Of a stretch of DNA of 58,529 nt, positions 3,174 to 39,921 are shown in pieces. Origin of the DNA: Candidatus Omnitrophota bacterium (GTDB lineage: Bacteria > Omnitrophota > Gorgyraeia > Duberdicusellales > 4484-171); contig WJJJ01000016.1 of NCBI GenBank assembly GCA_014729775.1, positions 1 to 58,529 of the forward strand, given 5' to 3'. Below the pieces are notes generated by a model. It ran no database searches and was not told the DNA's origin. It saw nothing but the letters and a program-made list of their open reading frames with translations. The position numbers were made by a program, and so were the translations under genes. Each line of letters begins with the position of its first letter. The first letter of the stretch is position 1.

Positions 3174-4476
3174 CTGTTTGTTCACCTCCCCAATAGCGTA
3201 ACAAATCGTCAATTCTGTTAAGTACCGTAGTTTTCCCCAGTACATGCATCGTTTCAAACAATCCGGGACCGGTTTTCCCGCCGGTGAGCGCGACGCGCGT
3301 AGGATGCACCAATATCTTCGCTTTTACCCCGTGAGCTTTTACCGTTTTGCGAAATTCGGCCTCGATGTGTTCGGCGGAAAAATCATGCAGCTGCGCCAGC
3401 GTGTTCCTCAGATCCTTGAGGAGAGGTGTCCGATTTTCCCGGAGTATCTCGCCGGCTTCGGGAGAATATCCGTCGAGTTCCGAAAAGCAGAAGCGGGCTT
3501 TCTCGGGAAATTCCGCGAGCGTGACCAGCCGCTCCCGGAAAAGAGAAACAACTTGAGCAAAATATTCCGGGGACGCTTCGGGGAGCTGTTTCCGTTCCTT
3601 CAGATATCTCCGGAGTGTTTCGGTCAAATCCTCCAACGATTTGTTCCGGACATACTCCCCGTTCATCCAATTCAGTTTTTCCAAGGAAAACACCGCGCCG
3701 GTTCTATTGACGGCGGAAAGTTCAAAAATTTTCCGGGCCTCATCCAACGAGAAAATTTCCTGGTCGTTTTTCGGGGACCATCCGAGCAGTAAAAGATAAT
3801 TTGCCAGGGCGTCGGGCAAATATCCCTGTTTCCGGTATTCCCGGAGAGAGGTGGCGCCGAATCTTTTTGAGAGCCGTCCCCCGTCCGGAGAAAGGATCAG
3901 GGGCACATGGGCATATTCAGGGGCGGTAAACCCCATGGCTTGGCACATGAGTACCTGTTTGGGGGTGTTGGAGATATGATCTTCGCCCCGGATCACACAG
4001 GTAATGCCCATGAGCGCGTCGTCCACCGCGCAGCAGAAATTATAGGCGGGGGACCCGTCGCTTTTGATGATTACTTCTTCCGGCCGCGGAAGCTCGGTGA
4101 ACGTGATCTCTCCGCGGATGTGGTCCCGGATGCGTACCTCATCGAACTCATAACGGAAAAATACCGCGCCCTCTTTTTCAAATGCGCGGTCCTCTTTCAG
4201 CAGCGCTTGGGCGTGTTCCCGATACACCTCAAACCGTTGAGATTGATGGTGAAGCTGATCCCAGTCGAGGCCCAGCCAGCGGATGCTTTCCAGGATTTCC
4301 TCCAGATATTCCTGTTTTGACCGGGAAAGGTCGGTGTCTTCTATGCGCAGCAGGAATTCCCCGTTCATGCGGCGGGCGTACAGCCAGTTAAAAAGACAGG
4401 TACGCGCGCCGCCGATATGGAGAAAGCCGGTCGGGGAAGGAGCGAAACGGACCTTAGTCTTGGGATGTGGGTGCAT
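3166..4476 (-). CDS. gltX: glutamate--tRNA ligase
   Basis: VRFAPSPTGFLHIGGART, LRIEDTD, RGEDHISNTPKQ, RLSKR and C-terminal anticodon-binding helices. Confidence 0.96.
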   Translation of the reverse strand: MHPHPKTKVRFAPSPTGFLHIGGARTCLFNWLYARRMNGEFLLRIEDTDLSRSKQEYLEEILESIRWLGLDWDQLHHQSQRFEVYREHAQALLKEDRAFEKEGAVFFRYEFDEVRIRDHIRGEITFTELPRPEEVIIKSDGSPAYNFCCAVDDALMGITCVIRGEDHISNTPKQVLMCQAMGFTAPEYAHVPLILSPDGGRLSKRFGATSLREYRKQGYLPDALANYLLLLGWSPKNDQEIFSLDEARKIFELSAVNRTGAVFSLEKLNWMNGEYVRNKSLEDLTETLRRYLKERKQLPEASPEYFAQVVSLFRERLVTLAEFPEKARFCFSELDGYSPEAGEILRENRTPLLKDLRNTLAQLHDFSAEHIEAEFRKTVKAHGVKAKILVHPTRVALTGGKTGPGLFETMHVLGKTTVLNRIDDLLRYWGGEQTDD

Positions 4477-34592: not shown

Positions 34593-35282
34593 TTAGCGCA
34601 CCAGCCGTTTCATTTTCCAGGCGATGATCACCGATGCCAGCACGTAGACCAGATAGCCGGCATAGACCAGCGGATGCGTGAGAAAATAGTCCATTATTTT
34701 TTCCGGCGAGAATTCTTTCACCGCCGCCAGCGGGAACTGGATAAAGAAAATCCGCGGCGGTGAGGCGATAAGTACGGCAATGAGATATTTGCGGAATGGG
34801 AATTTGCTCAGGCCGAAGCATAGGTCCAGTATCCGGTAAGGAACCAGCGGGATCGCCCGCAGAAGGATCACCGTGCGCAGGTTGGTCTCCTCCAGCCGGG
34901 CGTAGAGTCTTTTTCCTCTGCCTTTGAGCTTTGATTCCATGTAGTCTTTCCCCAGTGCCCGGCTCAGCCGGAAAAAGATCCAGGCGTTGATCACCTCGGA
35001 TACGTAAATCAGCGCGGTGCTGAGCAACGCGCCGAAAATCACCGCGGCGGCGAGTTTGAGCGGGTCTTTGAGGTACCAGAATATGAACGTTCCCCCGACA
35101 TATACCAGGATGAACACCAGTCCGGAGAACAGCAGCGGCAGCGCGCGGATGCGGCTTAAGAATTGGTTGACCTGGAGCGAGTAGGCCTGGCCGGCAAAAA
35201 AGACGACGACGAGCAGGAGCAGGAACAGCCCGAAGCGGAACTTCGGGCTGTGGACTATTTCGGTGAACCGGTGTGCTTTCAC
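34593..35282 (-). CDS. TVP38/DedA (VTT domain) membrane protein
   Basis: Hydrophobic profile and LLRAIPLVP motif. Confidence 0.85.
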   Translation of the reverse strand: MKAHRFTEIVHSPKFRFGLFLLLLVVVFFAGQAYSLQVNQFLSRIRALPLLFSGLVFILVYVGGTFIFWYLKDPLKLAAAVIFGALLSTALIYVSEVINAWIFFRLSRALGKDYMESKLKGRGKRLYARLEETNLRTVILLRAIPLVPYRILDLCFGLSKFPFRKYLIAVLIASPPRIFFIQFPLAAVKEFSPEKIMDYFLTHPLVYAGYLVYVLASVIIAWKMKRLVR

Positions 35283-36307
35283 GCCCGCACTCCTCCTCTT
35301 GCCTGGGCGCGCAGCTGGCCGCAGGCGGCGTCAATGTCCGGGCCGCGTGAGGCGCGGAGCGTAAAGAAAATGTTTTTCTTCTTGAGTTCTGCGGTGAACG
35401 CTGTTGTTTCCTCCTCTGTCGCCGGCCGGGCATTGCCGCGGGCCGCATGCAGAGGAATCAGGTTCACTTTGTGCTTGATCCCGCCCAGGAGCTTTGCCAG
35501 GCTCCGGGCCTGCTTGATGCCGGTGTTGAGGCCGCCGATCAGGGCGTATTCGCACGTCACCGGCTGACCGGTTGTTTTGGTATAGGTTTTGAGCGCGGGC
35601 ATGAGGTTTTTTAGCGGATATTTCCGGTTGACCGGCATCAGCCGTGACCGCAGGTCATCCGTGGCCGCGTGCAAAGAGACCGAAAGTTTGACCTTTGGGA
35701 AGGCCTCCGCCAGCTGAGGGAGGCGCGGGATGATCCCGCAGGTGGATACCGTGATTTTTCGGGGGCTGAAGCCGAGGCCTTTCGGCTCGCAGAGTAAAGA
35801 GATGCTGCCGGCGACATTAGCGAAATTGTCCAGCGGCTCGCCGATGCCCATGTACACGATGTGCGTGACCGGGCGCTCGTGATCGGCGGCCCAGAGGTGC
35901 TGGCCGACGATCTCGGCCACGGTCAGGTTACGCTGAAAGCCGGAGGCGCCACTGGCGCAGAAGGCGCAATTGAACCGGCACCCCACTTGTGAGGAGACGC
36001 AGAGCGTTCTCCGCTTCTTTTCCGGGATCATCACGGTTTCCACGGTCCGCCCGTCTGTGAGCCGGAACAGGTACTTTTCGGTTTTGTCCGCAGAGACCCG
36101 TTTCAGCGTACATTCCGGCAGGCCGCAATAAAAAGTATCCGCCAGCTCCCGCCGGAGATGCGGGGGTAGCGTGCGCATTTTCGCAAACTCCTCCGCTCTC
36201 TTTTTATACAGCCAACCAAAGACCTGGACCGCGCGGTAGGCGGGAAAGCCGTGCGCGGCCAGCCGCTGTGTTAGTTCGGGAAGCGCAAATTCGTAGATAT
36301 TTTCCAT
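35279..36307 (-). CDS. rlmN: 23S rRNA/tRNA m2A methyltransferase
   Basis: CVSSQVGCRFNCAFCAS, MGIGEPL, DIDAACGQL. Confidence 0.96.
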   Translation of the reverse strand: MENIYEFALPELTQRLAAHGFPAYRAVQVFGWLYKKRAEEFAKMRTLPPHLRRELADTFYCGLPECTLKRVSADKTEKYLFRLTDGRTVETVMIPEKKRRTLCVSSQVGCRFNCAFCASGASGFQRNLTVAEIVGQHLWAADHERPVTHIVYMGIGEPLDNFANVAGSISLLCEPKGLGFSPRKITVSTCGIIPRLPQLAEAFPKVKLSVSLHAATDDLRSRLMPVNRKYPLKNLMPALKTYTKTTGQPVTCEYALIGGLNTGIKQARSLAKLLGGIKHKVNLIPLHAARGNARPATEEETTAFTAELKKKNIFFTLRASRGPDIDAACGQLRAQARGGVRA

Positions 36308-36498
36308 TTTCAGGTAATTTCCTTCCTGTTTTCAGGAATCTTTCGAACAGTATACCATTTTCGCCCGATTAGAAAAGAGCGCAATAGAGAGGCAGAAAAA
36401 CCGGAGGTTTTATGATATGCTTTTGTATATGCGCAGGCGGAACAATCCGGCAGAAACCACCTCTGCCTCTTCTCCGCCATTCCCTGCCGGTGCTTTTG

Positions 36499-36565
36499 TG
36501 GTAAAATTTATATATGTAGTATTCATCGGCAGGATATTATGTTTTCCGTATATTAATTGTTAGAA
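36499..36565 (+). promoter_or_regulatory. putative cassette promoter and attI-like crossover site
   Basis: Extended -10 TGGTAAAAT (36499-36507), AT-rich tract, then core GTTAGAA (36559-36565) complementary to the R'' of the next attC. Confidence 0.5.
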
Positions 36566-36586
36566 GAGTCTAAATAAGGAGGAGAA

Positions 36587-37036
36587 ATGAAAAGAATATT
36601 TACTTGTCTCTTTGTAATACTTCTTTCATCTACGGTAGCAAGCCTTTCTTTGAAAGCAGATAATGCTAAAATAGATTATTTTAAGCTAAATTCAAATAAG
36701 TTGCTTTATCCTGGAGATGTAATTTTTACCGGTCATGTAACAGCTTCATGTGGACCAAGAGGATCACAGAAGCCATGTGCTTATAAAAAAACTTTGATTT
36801 ATAAAGATTTTGAAAAAACTTTTGAGATAAGTAGAATCATTGTAGAAGAAATAACAGAATGGACAAAGGGTAGCAGTCCCAACTATAATCAAAAAATAAA
36901 GAAAAAAGAAATGCCTATCAGCGCCAGGAGTTCTTACGGTTGGAATCCGTTCCCGGAACTAAAATTCTCAACGCCAAATAGACGAGATAAAAAAGGTGGA
37001 ATAATGGTACAAAAAGTTTTATATGGTAGAAATTAA
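36587..37036 (+). CDS. cassette 1: hypothetical secreted protein
   Basis: SD AAGGAGG, signal peptide, stop 3 nt before the attC. Confidence 0.8.
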   Translation: MKRIFTCLFVILLSSTVASLSLKADNAKIDYFKLNSNKLLYPGDVIFTGHVTASCGPRGSQKPCAYKKTLIYKDFEKTFEISRIIVEEITEWTKGSSPNYNQKIKKKEMPISARSSYGWNPFPELKFSTPNRRDKKGGIMVQKVLYGRN

Positions 37037-37039
37037 AAC

Positions 37040-37105
37040 TTCTAACAAGCCAATCCAGCGGACCGTAAACCTGCGCTTTCCGGCCGCCGAGTTCGAATGT
37101 TATAG
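37040..37105 (+). mobile_element. attC site 1
   Basis: R'' TTCTAAC, L'' ATCCAGC, inner stem GCGG-A-CCG/CGG-CCGC, R' GTTATAG. Confidence 0.85.
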
Positions 37106-37115
37106 GCAAATAAAA

Positions 37116-37670
37116 ATGCAGAAATTAATCACCAGAAAACAAATCAGATTAAAGAATTATAATTACGGATTAAATGGATATTATTTTGTGACCATATGTT
37201 CAAAAAATAGAGAAAATATATTTTGGAAATATAAAATATCTGTAGGGGCCGCGCTTGCCCCGGCCCGTTATGAAAATAACATAAATTTATCGATAATCGG
37301 TACAATAATCGATAATCAATGGAAGGATATACCGAATCAATATAATGATGTTCAATTGGATCAATACATTATTATGCCCAACCATATTCATGGTATTTTG
37401 ATTATTAATAATAATCATGGTGGTTATCGGGCGCAGGCAAGCAGCGCCCCTACGGTTTCTCAAATTATTCGTTCATTTAAATCAAAATCTACCATGAAAT
37501 ATCTAAAATACATAAATGATAATGATTTAAATATTTCCGGAAAAATATGGCAACGTTCCTTTTACGACCGCATCATCAGAAACGGCCGCTCTCTTGGCGC
37601 AATACGTGAATATATATCCAACAACCCGGTTAATTGGGAAAAAGATATCGATAATTTAATTAACCTATAA
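37116..37670 (+). CDS. cassette 2: REP-associated tyrosine transposase (RAYT, IS200-like HUH)
   Basis: GYYFVTIC, IMPNHIHGI (HUH), WQRSFYDRIIR, catalytic EYISNNP; start set after attC1. Confidence 0.9.
   Translation: MQKLITRKQIRLKNYNYGLNGYYFVTICSKNRENIFWKYKISVGAALAPARYENNINLSIIGTIIDNQWKDIPNQYNDVQLDQYIIMPNHIHGILIINNNHGGYRAQASSAPTVSQIIRSFKSKSTMKYLKYINDNDLNISGKIWQRSFYDRIIRNGRSLGAIREYISNNPVNWEKDIDNLINL
37242..37267 (+). repeat. GTAG-type REP-like palindrome inside RAYT
   Basis: GTAGGGGCCGCGCTTGCCCCGGCCCG, GC-rich within an AT-rich gene. Confidence 0.75.
37428..37453 (-). repeat. GTAG-type REP-like palindrome inside RAYT (inverted copy)
   Basis: Reverse complement GTAGGGGCGCTGCTTGCCTGCGCCCG, same 26-nt length as the first copy. 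Confidence 0.75.
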
Positions 37671-37742
37671 TTTTTTCATCCAGAGGACTGTTACCGCCGG
37701 TTTTCAAGCCGTCGGCACCAGCCGCTGGTTTTTATGTTAGAA
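37665..37742 (+). mobile_element. attC site 2 (degenerate R'')
   Basis: R'' CTATAAT (AAT rather than AAC), L'' ATCCAG, palindromic core, L' GCTGGT, R' GTTAGAA. Confidence 0.75.
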
Positions 37743-37814
37743 GGGACCTTGCCCCGTTGGGGCTCCGTAAGGCAGCCGATCTTTATGTGGTGTGAATAAT
37801 AAAAAGGGAGAAAA

Positions 37815-38502
37815 ATGAAAATTAAATATCTAATTCTCATAGCTATCTTATCTTTGACATTTTCATCCTCTTCCTATGCTGAAAAAAATAACGCTTAAAT
37901 CAGGAAAAACAATTGAAGGAAAAGTAATTCAAGAAACAGCCACTTTCATAAAAATTAACTTTTCTAGAGTCCCTTTAACCTGCTACAAGGATGAAATAGC
38001 TAATATACAAAGGGGCAGCAACACCCAAGCAGAAAGCAACATTCAATCTAATCAAAAACAAATTAAATCGCAAGGATGGCTAGAATGGCACAATAAAGCG
38101 AAGCCTCATCTTGATAAAGTTACAGCACGACTGGAGTCTATTGGTTCTGCAGCGAGTAATCCGATTCATGTAAAATCTAATCCCAATAAAGTTTTAAATA
38201 CAATAAATTCGGATATAAATAAACTAAACAGTTCGAATCCTCCCCAAGAATTAGCATCTTTTTACAATGATATAAAAAATTCTTTTGAGCACACTAAAAA
38301 ACAAATTCTAGCTTTAACCAAAAATAAAAACCAACAAGCAATCAATCATGCTGTGCAATCATTGCAATATAGCAAAAAGGCCTTGCTAAAACTAAAGAAA
38401 ATATTTATTAAGCATAGCGCTCCAAAAGAGAAAATAGACGAAATTGATTTCCTGATAGATGCAAACAATAAAGGGTTAGCTATGCTAGGTTATGCAAAAT
38501 AG
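37815..38502 (+). pseudogene. cassette 3: secreted protein with a one-base frameshift in an A7 run
   Basis: SD and signal peptide MKIKYLILIAILSLTFSSSSYA-EK end at TAA; removing one A at 37882-37888 joins it to ITLKSGKTIEGK... ending at 38502. Confidence 0.75.
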
Positions 38503-38536
38503 GCTCGATAAAGTATTATGGTTTTAGCAAAATAAT

Positions 38537-38600
38537 ACACAACAAACTAATCCACCGGACATTGTTGCTGCGCAAAATGCCGGTGATCATTGTGTTAGGG
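38537..38600 (+). mobile_element. attC site 3
   Basis: R'' ACACAAC, ATC-C-ACCGG-A-CATT pairing with AATG-CCGGT-GAT (two extrahelical bases), R' GTTAGGG. Confidence 0.88.
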
Positions 38601-38611
38601 GGAGGGATAAT

Positions 38612-39238
38612 ATGACAAAAAACAAAAGGTTTATCAAATATTCTCGTATAGTTCTCGGTGCAGCGGTAATCAGCGGTGCCAGTCTTTATGTACTCTATCT
38701 TCATGATTCCATCGCATGGCATAGAAAATCTGCAGAGTATCTGCGCGCGGAATTAGATGAGTATTATAATGTGATGTATGATTTGCTGTTGGAGCAGGAA
38801 GAATTTAAGGTGTTCAGTGAAAAATATGCGAGTTTTAGCGAAACTTTTATGGAAGGCAATGTGAAGCGCACCATCACATCATCTTTTGGGAAAGTGATCG
38901 AAACTGAGGGCCATAAAATCAAATACTTAGCTCTTTCGGCCGAGAGGCCGGTTAAGAATCGTGAAAACGCGACTATTGTTATCTATCTTAAGAAAAATTT
39001 CCCACGCAAAAAAGTGTCTATGGAGGCAGAAATAGCCCCCCGTCTCTCCCCTTCCCTTCCGGTGGTTTTAATGGAAATTCCAATGACGGAGTTTGACGAA
39101 ATTTTGGAGAATTGGCTTTCTCAAAAGAATATTGATACTCTTGTGATGACCTACCGGAAACTTATTCAGGAATCACGAGAAAAAGGGAAAGACTTTGTGA
39201 ACAGCAAAATTCCTGTATATGTAGAATACGTCCGTTAA
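38612..39238 (+). CDS. cassette 4: hypothetical membrane-anchored protein
   Basis: SD GGAGG immediately after attC3; N-terminal TM helix. Confidence 0.8.
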   Translation: MTKNKRFIKYSRIVLGAAVISGASLYVLYLHDSIAWHRKSAEYLRAELDEYYNVMYDLLLEQEEFKVFSEKYASFSETFMEGNVKRTITSSFGKVIETEGHKIKYLALSAERPVKNRENATIVIYLKKNFPRKKVSMEAEIAPRLSPSLPVVLMEIPMTEFDEILENWLSQKNIDTLVMTYRKLIQESREKGKDFVNSKIPVYVEYVR

Positions 39239-39748
39239 TCATCCGTGCCAGCGAGGCCTTCCTCCTCTGCCCCCGCCTGCCGAAGCGGGCCGCGGACTTC
39301 TCGCCATAAAGACGGAACCGAGAAAGCAAAAATACTGTTGCTGTTGATTCCGGGATTACTTTTTGTCAACGCGGTGTTTCTTTGCCTGATAGGGCTTGGC
39401 AGCGCTTCGCAGGCGGTGTCCGAAGGCGCGGCCGCTCCCGGTGTGGGCCGCAGCGGTCTTTCGATTGTGGGGCTGGTCCCTGGTGCCGTATGCGGGGTAT
39501 CTGGCATTGCTCGTGAGGTGCCGGGCTAATCCGCCCCGTTTCTCGCGCAGTTATCACAGTGTTCTCCATCCCGCCTGGCTTTCCTTTCCGGGGAGCGGTG
39601 CGGTGTCCTTTGTCTGTGGCCGTTTCTGCCGGCGTAACGATAAATAGCCGGTTTTGCCCGAGCAAGGGCGCCTGTACGGATTTTTTTGCACACCGACTCC
39701 TCGTCTCCTTCTTCATTCGTGATTCGCGCGCTGTTCCCTGAAAAGAGC

Positions 39749-39776
39749 TTGACAGTGCCGCGGGGTGTGTTACAAT
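39749..39776 (+). promoter_or_regulatory. sigma70-type promoter of rpmH
   Basis: TTGACA-16 nt-TACAAT with TG extension; ATG lies 7 nt downstream. Confidence 0.75.
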
Positions 39777-39783
39777 TTCCTCT

Positions 39784-39921
39784 ATGAAAAAAGGGCAGTC
39801 TACCCCCACAAAATTAAAAGGAAAACGCAAGCATGGGTTCCGCACCAGGATGTCTACTGCCGAAGGAAAAAAGATCCTCAACAGAAGGCGCCGTAAGGGG
39901 AGAAAAAAACTGGCGGTATGA
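39784..39921 (+). CDS. rpmH: 50S ribosomal protein L34 (not in ORF track)
   Basis: [45 protein letters not shown]. Confidence 0.96.

Follow-up and report, generated by a model that had tools for sequence, protein, structure and literature searches.

The window analysed here, a stretch of 58,529 nucleotides from a Candidatus Omnitrophota bacterium, carries between the host genes rlmN and rpmH a small, decaying array of integron cassettes with no integrase gene (intI) beside it. As judged by comparison with related sequences, the array is a CALIN (the term for clustered attC sites without an integron integrase) that keeps an attI recombination site and a likely cassette promoter (Pc), and it is the identifiable attI that sets it apart from described CALINs. 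The window is contig C11 of an assembly of 1.65 Mb in 34 contigs, with a GC content of 0.536 and a completeness of 94.4% (about 6% of marker genes are missing). Among the 74 genomes of the family that were compared, the window genome is the sole one of its genus, and the other 73 are referred to as its relatives.

The array and its head

The array lies in a low-GC stretch of 2.7 kb (GC 0.33-0.40) between rlmN and rpmH-yidD-yidC, which is the lowest-GC island of the whole assembly and is internal to its contig. A preliminary description of this DNA had placed the feature at 36499-39238; the array as such is real, its start is better set at the attI, at 36544, and the low GC content ends near 39240. 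Further low-GC stretches of the same genome (GC 0.37-0.42, at about 4500-6500 of contig C33 and 14000-16000 of contig C26) contain no attC or attI matches.

Sites resembling attC were collected from the loci of relatives by a profile seeded on five sites, which yielded 90 sites, and a covariance model (R2) was trained on 47 shorter attC sites of other genomes, the window sequence being excluded from training. In the training alignment, 96.6% of the cells are paired, and both partners vary in 9 of the 15 pairs; as the training sites had been selected for attC-like arms, this covariation leans towards structure and is no independent proof of it. Over the 58.5 kb of the window, the model returned the three attC hairpins that the preliminary description had read from the sequence, at 39-47 bits (Table 1, where fold z compares the bottom strand with shuffled sequences), and the next-best match reached 13.3 bits. 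Genome-wide, the same three were the sole attC sites reported (150 of 867 first-look candidates were scored), and the model finds attC sites in 41 of the 73 relatives. The R'' core of the degenerate attC2 reads AAT, and in an alignment the copy of the same cassette in locus L113 reads AAC. The seeded profile missed attC2, and the covariance model was used besides. A rule-based attC scan of the genome gave 531 candidates among which the real sites were not separated, a stricter version was still noisy, and an Rfam search returned no attC match. Long AT-rich imperfect inverted repeats that lie near rlmN in three relatives (L026 520-666, L031 471-624 and L039 5704-5861) are not attC by the model. 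The preliminary description had named a silent attC model and four open reading frames (ORFs) that are syntenic core genes in relatives as grounds for giving it up; the model matches, and the ORFs are not such genes.

The ends of the cassettes are complementary, as had also been noticed. GTTAGAA and TTCTAAC of cassette 1 pair at 7 of 7 positions, and GTTATAG and CTATAAT of cassette 2 at 6 of 7; random pairs of family cores match at 7 of 7 in 4.3% of cases (351/8100).

Going by its sequence likeness to relatives, the head of the array is the attI of the family followed by the first cassette and preceded by a predicted Pc, both of which the preliminary description had supposed to be kept. Window positions 36544-36564 (TTCCGTATATTAATTGTTAGA) are identical at 21 of 21 positions to the intI-adjacent site of a relative (G058), in which the order is rlmN <- intI <- attI and whose integrase (IntI) passes TIGR02249 with 436 bits against a cut-off of 265. 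On a profile built from 13 intI-adjacent attI sites, the window site scores 27.1, against 14.6 for the next-best position in the genome, and is present in a single copy. When up to one mismatch is allowed, a 16-base attI motif occurs 66 times across the order, in 36 of 85 genomes, and its reversed control 7 times. Upstream of the site, the predicted extended -10 of Pc (TGGTAAAAT) aligns with the TGnTATAAT-type box of intI-adjacent and of intI-less (orphan) modules in relatives, at the usual spacing of the family. The start of rlmN lies 252 bases from the crossover, on the side that holds intI in relatives, which agrees with the earlier remark that an extended -10 precedes the first crossover and that rlmN stands where intI would be expected. 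A consensus promoter scan returned 14 sites, where 9.8 +/- 3.3 were expected. It did not list the extended -10 TGGTAAAAT, nor did it report a -35 pairing for the candidate -10 of rlmN (TGGTATACT).

Being without an adjacent intI, the array is no complete integron and falls within the definition of CALINs, with no fewer than two attC sites and no intI nearby. The search for intI elsewhere that the preliminary description had proposed found none: in the genome, TIGR02249 stays below its cut-off, with matches that skip profile positions ~183-237, and neither a hidden Markov model of the family IntI nor tblastn with the 15 family IntIs, over six frames, detected an IntI or a remnant. The sole tyrosine recombinases found are XerC and XerD, each passing its own cut-off. 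Among the 41 relatives with attC sites, 26 also have no intI found (their assemblies are incomplete), and integrase-free genomes therefore look common in the family.

Some features of the family integrases were seen in passing. The IntIs measure 417-452 aa (14 full-length; L007 901-2199 and L008-L021); their match to TIGR02249 begins at residue 105 of 433, and nothing in Pfam matches the first 100 residues. In L009, L011, L014, L016, L020 and L021, the next housekeeping gene starts inside the last codons of intI, and the IntI tails therefore vary after a conserved SPLD motif. Repeats similar to the left arm of attI (TCCGTAT / ATACGGA) flank the -10 of the integrase promoter (Pint) and could be extra IntI binding sites.

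Cassettes, their genes and their decay

Decay is progressing from the right-hand end of the array, and nothing but attI, cassette 1 and attC1 still looks whole. Four things had escaped the preliminary description, namely a collapsed cassette of 51 bases, a frameshift in ORF3, the lack of an attC after ORF4, and the identity of ORF2 as a REP-type HUH transposase carried as a cassette in other genomes as well (REP, repetitive extragenic palindrome). We regard the array as likely to be both frozen and decaying.

The collapsed unit, which follows cassette 2, aligns with the family attC of L087 in 33 of 43 columns. Because its right-arm score is modest (11.0, with 149 genome positions reaching 10), the case for this unit rests on its position and on the match of its core. 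The core GTGGTGT pairs at 6 of 7 positions with ACACAAC at the end of cassette 3 and is of a type seen in 1 of the 90 family sites, from which it follows that a cassette has collapsed here by deletion and that cassette 3 starts at this point. In cassette 3, ORF3 is split, with a 27-codon signal-peptide frame (37815-37898) out of frame with the body (37876-38502); in the assembled sequence, the frameshift falls at a run of seven A (37882-37888). ORF4 has a GC content of 0.40, against 0.54 for the genome, and was not found in the 73 family genomes. A fifth attC after ORF4 was sought, and the best left-arm score there, 0.4, is not significant (4296 genome positions score 0 or more); ORF4 is likely an old cassette minus its attC.

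Three of the four genes carry few clues to function. None of ORF1, ORF3 and ORF4 matches a Pfam, NCBIfam or PADLOC family over cut-off. In a large protein search, ORF1 found only itself among 21 candidates, and ORF3 at full length likewise matched no other protein; searches of protein clusters linked ORF4 to clusters without a name and were of no use for ORF1. All three proteins begin with a hydrophobic stretch and probably are exported or sit in the membrane. The N-terminal part of the ORF3 body (45-70 residues; window 37891-38090) resembles five other loci of the same genome at 34-52% identity (contig C21 79332-79463, contig C25 9057-9266 and three places in contig C34), and this part of ORF3 has a weak match to NF047433.

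ORF2 is the exception. It matches PF01797 at 28.9 bits, above the cut-off of 23, and, over residues 75-172 only, NF047646 (REP-associated tyrosine transposase, RAYT) at 59.8 bits, below the cut-off of 80; its translation has the motifs HIH and YISNNP, corresponding to HUH and Y---NP. One arm of a REP-like inverted repeat lies before the HUH motif and the other between HUH and Y. TnpA-REP proteins of subclass 2.4 contain in-frame REP insertions, generally between HUH and Y (PMC6006769; here, as for the other papers cited, we refer to the accessible portion of the source). ORF2 is like this subclass in having HUH, Y---NP and a REP-like GTAG...CTAC repeat in frame, and unlike it in that the gene forms a cassette bounded by att sites, both in the window and in other genomes; the word 'integron' is absent from the main text of that paper. 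A protein 76% identical to ORF2 forms a complete cassette with an intact attC in an assembly of Planctomycetia (L113), and a piece 60% identical follows an attC in an Omnitrophota assembly. Relatives of ORF2 occur in 26 of the 73 family genomes. An att site lies at one end of 11 of the 29 RAYT loci of the family that were examined, against none of 460 control positions, and as the other 18 have no att site, many are not cassettes. Genes of this kind stand as cassettes or right after attI in L113 59-592, L114 2501-2848, L072 2889-3407, L101 1016-1501 and L123 1767-2270. A plasmid search with ORF2 returned distant RAYT relatives only, and our literature search found no description of RAYT genes as integron cassettes.

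Among the public sequencing runs, none of RNA was listed; in the single DNA run, low-depth pieces about 97-99% alike cover rlmN, ORF1 and ORF2, and none spans a cassette junction. A low-depth contig of run X1 (window 37100-37303) starts exactly at the first base of cassette 2, which may be accidental or may mark a branching of the graph towards several upstream contexts.

The flanking genes are given in Table 1. An RlmN protein search at a strict cut-off returned only the protein itself. When the rlmN-rpmH interval was compared in relatives, as the preliminary description had suggested, the neighbourhood proved not to be conserved: yidC occurs in none of the 20 rlmN loci of relatives. In 19 of the 23 best yidC loci of relatives dnaA precedes rpmH, which is not so in the window; the dnaA of the window genome is on contig C2 (2762-4090), and the array together with 545 GC-rich bases (39239-39783) occupies its place before rpmH. 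The array marks a rearrangement point.

Table 1 Features of the rlmN-rpmH interval (positions in the window)
Feature	Position	Strand	Description
rlmN	35279-36307	-	left-flank host gene; TIGR00048, 362.9 bits against a cut-off of 290; GC 0.61
Candidate extended -10 of rlmN	36349-36357	-	TGGTATACT, read from sequence
Predicted Pc, extended -10	36499-36507	+	TGGTAAAAT, 60 bases before crossover
attI core	36544-36565	+	TTCCGTATATTAATTG followed by TTAGAA; predicted crossover between 36559 and 36560
Cassette 1	36560-37099	+	GC 0.35; cores 7/7 complementary
ORF1	36587-37036	+	149 aa, hydrophobic N-terminus; in cassette 1
attC1	37040-37105	+	intact cores; 47.4 bits, E 7e-9; fold z -2.4
Cassette 2	37100-37736	+	carries ORF2; cores 6/7 complementary
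ORF2	37116-37670	+	HUH Y1 transposase, REP-associated (RAYT / TnpA-REP) type
REP-like inverted repeat inside ORF2	arms 37242-37270 and 37425-37453		GTAG...CTAC ends; longest of the region, 76% complementary
attC2	37665-37742	+	degenerate; 39.0 bits; fold z -4.7
Collapsed cassette	37737-37787	+	51 bases: 7-base core and right three quarters of attC; no ORF, no left arm
Cassette 3	37788-38594	+	carries split ORF3
attC3	38537-38600	+	42.8 bits; fold z -3.8
ORF4	38612-39238	+	208 aa; unit 38595-39238; starts 18 bases after last crossover
rpmH	39787-39921	+	right-flank host gene, then yidD and yidC; PF00468, PF01809, PF02096

Origin of the array

The explanation that we favour, with confidence a little above even, is that an integron lost its intI in place in front of rlmN and left a frozen array. 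A complete integron would first have settled head to tail in front of rlmN. Its IntI would have inserted circular cassettes one by one at attI, so that the oldest stand at the right and cassette 1 came last, and a deletion would then have removed intI together with its promoter, sparing the rlmN start and at least the last 60 bases before the crossover. The predicted Pc would still transcribe at least ORF1, and cassette 1 and attI could be reused if an IntI arrived.

This history draws on what lies upstream of rlmN in 60 relatives (147-5000 bases were available, in some less than 1 kb), seven of which carry integron parts. In five (G017, G086, G088, G008 and G071), an attI-like site without intI is found 167-224 bases from the rlmN start in the same orientation, with the reservation that the G008 site scores 12.9, within background, and was counted for its likeness to that of G071; the other two are the complete integron of G058 and an attC array in G012. 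One well-supported clade of seven on the RlmN tree holds the complete integron and three intI-less sites at rlmN. A stretch of short low-GC ORFs with weak attC scores upstream of rlmN in G019 (L035 2915-4545) was not counted and is possibly an older, more eroded array at this locus.

The way in which intI is placed in the family bears on the same point. Found in 15 of the 73 relatives, the intI genes adjoin at least seven different genes, and within one genus each of four genomes has a different neighbour; for bioA, era, mtnA, truA and a nitroreductase gene, which are among the neighbours in the family, the labels were assigned from the sequences and not from profile matches. In 11 of the 15 integrons, intI at its 3' end touches or runs into the start of the gene that follows in the same direction, and removal of intI would therefore give the layout of the window. 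Deletion in place has left a trace in L098 (6700-6890), where a frameshifted IntI remnant (residues 346-426) stands directly behind a promoter module and faces a glycosyltransferase gene tail to tail. This remnant and the occurrence of sites at rlmN fit loss in place.

Several observations weigh against this explanation. Between rlmN and the crossover (252 bases), neither an intI remnant nor the family Pint motif is left (profile score -0.8, shuffled median -4.3), so that the deletion is not seen directly. Positions 36420-36460 were first read as a Pint remnant, a reading to which alignment and profile gave no support. Across the orphan candidates described below, a remnant of intI is kept in only 1 of 40. 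When the last 80 bases of the window module are compared with other modules, the best score is 16/83 and G058 is not in the top three; the module is too eroded to decide between the arrival of a whole integron and that of a module alone. Between genera, the modules on the rlmN side show no mutual pairing, that of G088 matching modules elsewhere in G082 and G088, and that of G017 the intI-adjacent module of G057. On the RlmN tree, the eight carriers need seven changes, against a mean of 7.6 after shuffling (161 of 500 shuffles needed no more), and the window genome does not group with G058. This tree is a quick one of 61 partial sequences, in which the window genome is a long, compositionally odd branch, and its well-supported branches force only three changes. 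As modules are unlike across genera and seven changes are needed, repeated arrival at rlmN is at least as likely as one ancestral event. The 94.4% completeness of the assembly was also counted on this side. The loss of intI that the preliminary description had supposed is still the likeliest history, intI occupying that slot in G058, and stays unproven, given modules that are unlike across genera and scattered, and near-identical intI-less copies in relatives.

Such copies are the basis of the strongest competing explanation, which we consider rather unlikely for the window: a promoter-attI module of about 150-170 bases was copied without intI, an integrase encoded elsewhere and since lost loaded the window site, and intI never stood beside rlmN. 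Forty regions were taken around motif matches, out of 84 non-window matches and with a preference for few mismatches; one proved to be intI-adjacent, which left 40 orphan candidate sites in 39 loci. The attI profile score is 17 or more in 37 of the 40, and 26 have a downstream attC; in 16 of these 26, the first attC is complementary to the site core at 7 of 7 positions (4.3% by chance), and these intI-less sites were therefore used for cassette insertion. Within single genomes, module copies are identical at 167/169 (G017), 133/151 (G003), 146/175 (G015), 131/162 (G070), 120/152 (G058), 195/221 (G074) and, in tandem, 225/240 (G067) positions. The best match lies in the same genome for 22 of 38 modules of multi-module genomes, and 17 of the 36 genomes that carry the attI motif have it twice or more. 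The copies end sharply near the intI start codon, the left ends falling within about 20 bases of it in five pairs with an intI-adjacent copy. At 12 of the 40 candidates, the Pint motif is still present where it is normally spaced but is not followed by intI (scores 21-41), and 39 have no intI remnant.

This explanation has its own difficulties. No shared recombination core or target repeat was seen by eye at the inspected left boundaries of modules, nor such a core at intI 3' ends, so that no mechanism is in hand, and L098 does show deletion in place. Whole integrons that moved and lost intI cleanly afterwards would leave the same picture. As all the genomes are fragmented assemblies, some orphans may have been split from their intI, an adjoining intI being possible for the 3 of 40 candidates with fewer than 310 bases upstream. 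The genes upstream of the orphan candidates are often housekeeping genes, either divergent (rlmN, truA, and genes for a PP-loop protein, a dihydroorotate dehydrogenase and a class II tRNA synthetase) or in tandem (genes for a RodA-type protein, riboflavin kinase, PRPP synthetase, and leucyl- and Glu/Gln-tRNA synthetases). In L108, two modules of 240 bases (2313-2553 and 4052-4292, 225/240 identical) belong to a single array, and the second begins some 10 bases past an attC crossover. The family IntI tree, with 2 of 12 inner branches well supported, and the four IntIs of genus g10, which are 50-63% identical (one is a fragment) and show no visible grouping, do not prove any transfer.

The preliminary description had also offered an array served by an integrase in trans. 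That the array is still active, with its intI missing from the assembly, we hold to be improbable. The assembly does consist of 34 contigs and lacks about 6% of marker genes, the array still has an intact attI and an intact attC1, and a single intI coexists with several attI-headed arrays in relatives such as G015, G003 and G070. Against this, the assembly contains no IntI or remnant and only XerC and XerD as recombinases, no attC or attI is found elsewhere in it, contig ends included, and the array is the lowest-GC island of the assembly and lies inside a contig. Three of the four distal units are damaged, and an absence of intI is shared with the 26 attC-carrying relatives mentioned above. 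An origin from a cassette inserted at a chance attG site, with no attI ever present, has been shown experimentally and proposed for small CALINs (bioRxiv 10.1101/2022.09.11.507474), and is very improbable here, as the attG consensus is only GWT, the sequence to the left of the crossover agrees with the family attI over 15 bases, matches to the 16-base motif far outnumber those to its control and the extended -10 stands at the family spacing.

A wider reading of the family can be given only tentatively. Its integron may be non-sedentary, with a Pint-Pc-attI module of about 165 bases that spreads to new sites with or without the integrase, mostly beside housekeeping genes and repeatedly before rlmN. 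One IntI would load several sites, which would outlive it as CALINs that a new intI could switch on again, and the window would show the end stage. For the origin of CALINs it is of use that the attI of this family is short and conserved and can be searched for. Depending on the genome, the rlmN locus holds the whole integron, just an attI, just attC sites or none of them, and loss in place, module copying and attG seeding can thus be told apart by comparative genomics and a recombination assay. Should orphan attI sites still be usable, genomes without an integrase would offer promoter-bearing sites ready for gene capture, and intI-based integron counts would be too low.

Relation to known integrons

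The definition of CALINs leaves attI out of account, since in the majority of integrons this site is not known, and for 95% of CALINs no pseudogene of intI lies close by (2016, PMC4889954). In the same paper, Cury et al. list four routes to CALINs. The window array resembles CALINs in being small, in holding cassettes of unknown function and in its degenerate attC, suggested there as a step towards fixation; it departs from those described in keeping an attI and a likely Pc that can be identified from relatives. Cassettes of CALINs can be taken up by an outside IntI (PMC9668308). Our literature search, made in a limited library and without supplements, found no description of scattered attI copies, and the supplementary tables of IntegronFinder may list these arrays; nor are such copies described in the accessible portions of PMC8618304, PMC10127599, PMC8266576, PMC5581495 and bioRxiv 10.1101/2022.02.06.479319.

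The sedentary integrons of Xanthomonas are alike in that an array became fixed after its integrase had been damaged or deleted (bioRxiv 10.1101/2025.06.18.660453). In Xanthomonas, however, intI lies downstream of ilvD in nearly all genomes, whereas the present family has at least seven intI neighbours and scattered attI-headed arrays. A conserved, host-inherited locus, as in sedentary integrons, is not what we find, since integron parts occur at rlmN in 7 of 60 relatives and the carriers are unclustered on the RlmN tree. In Shewanella, strain-specific intI is found at varied sites and is often gained or lost, by a mechanism stated to be unknown, and CALINs occur with and without intI (PMC9229058); intI-less copies of attI or of promoter modules are not reported in the accessible part of that study. 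Finally, lone attC sites without an integron integrase (SALINs) and insertions at attG share with the window array that cassettes placed by IntI stand far from any intI (bioRxiv 10.1101/2022.09.11.507474). The attG sites, unlike attI, have only GWT in common, while the window array starts at the attI of its own family.

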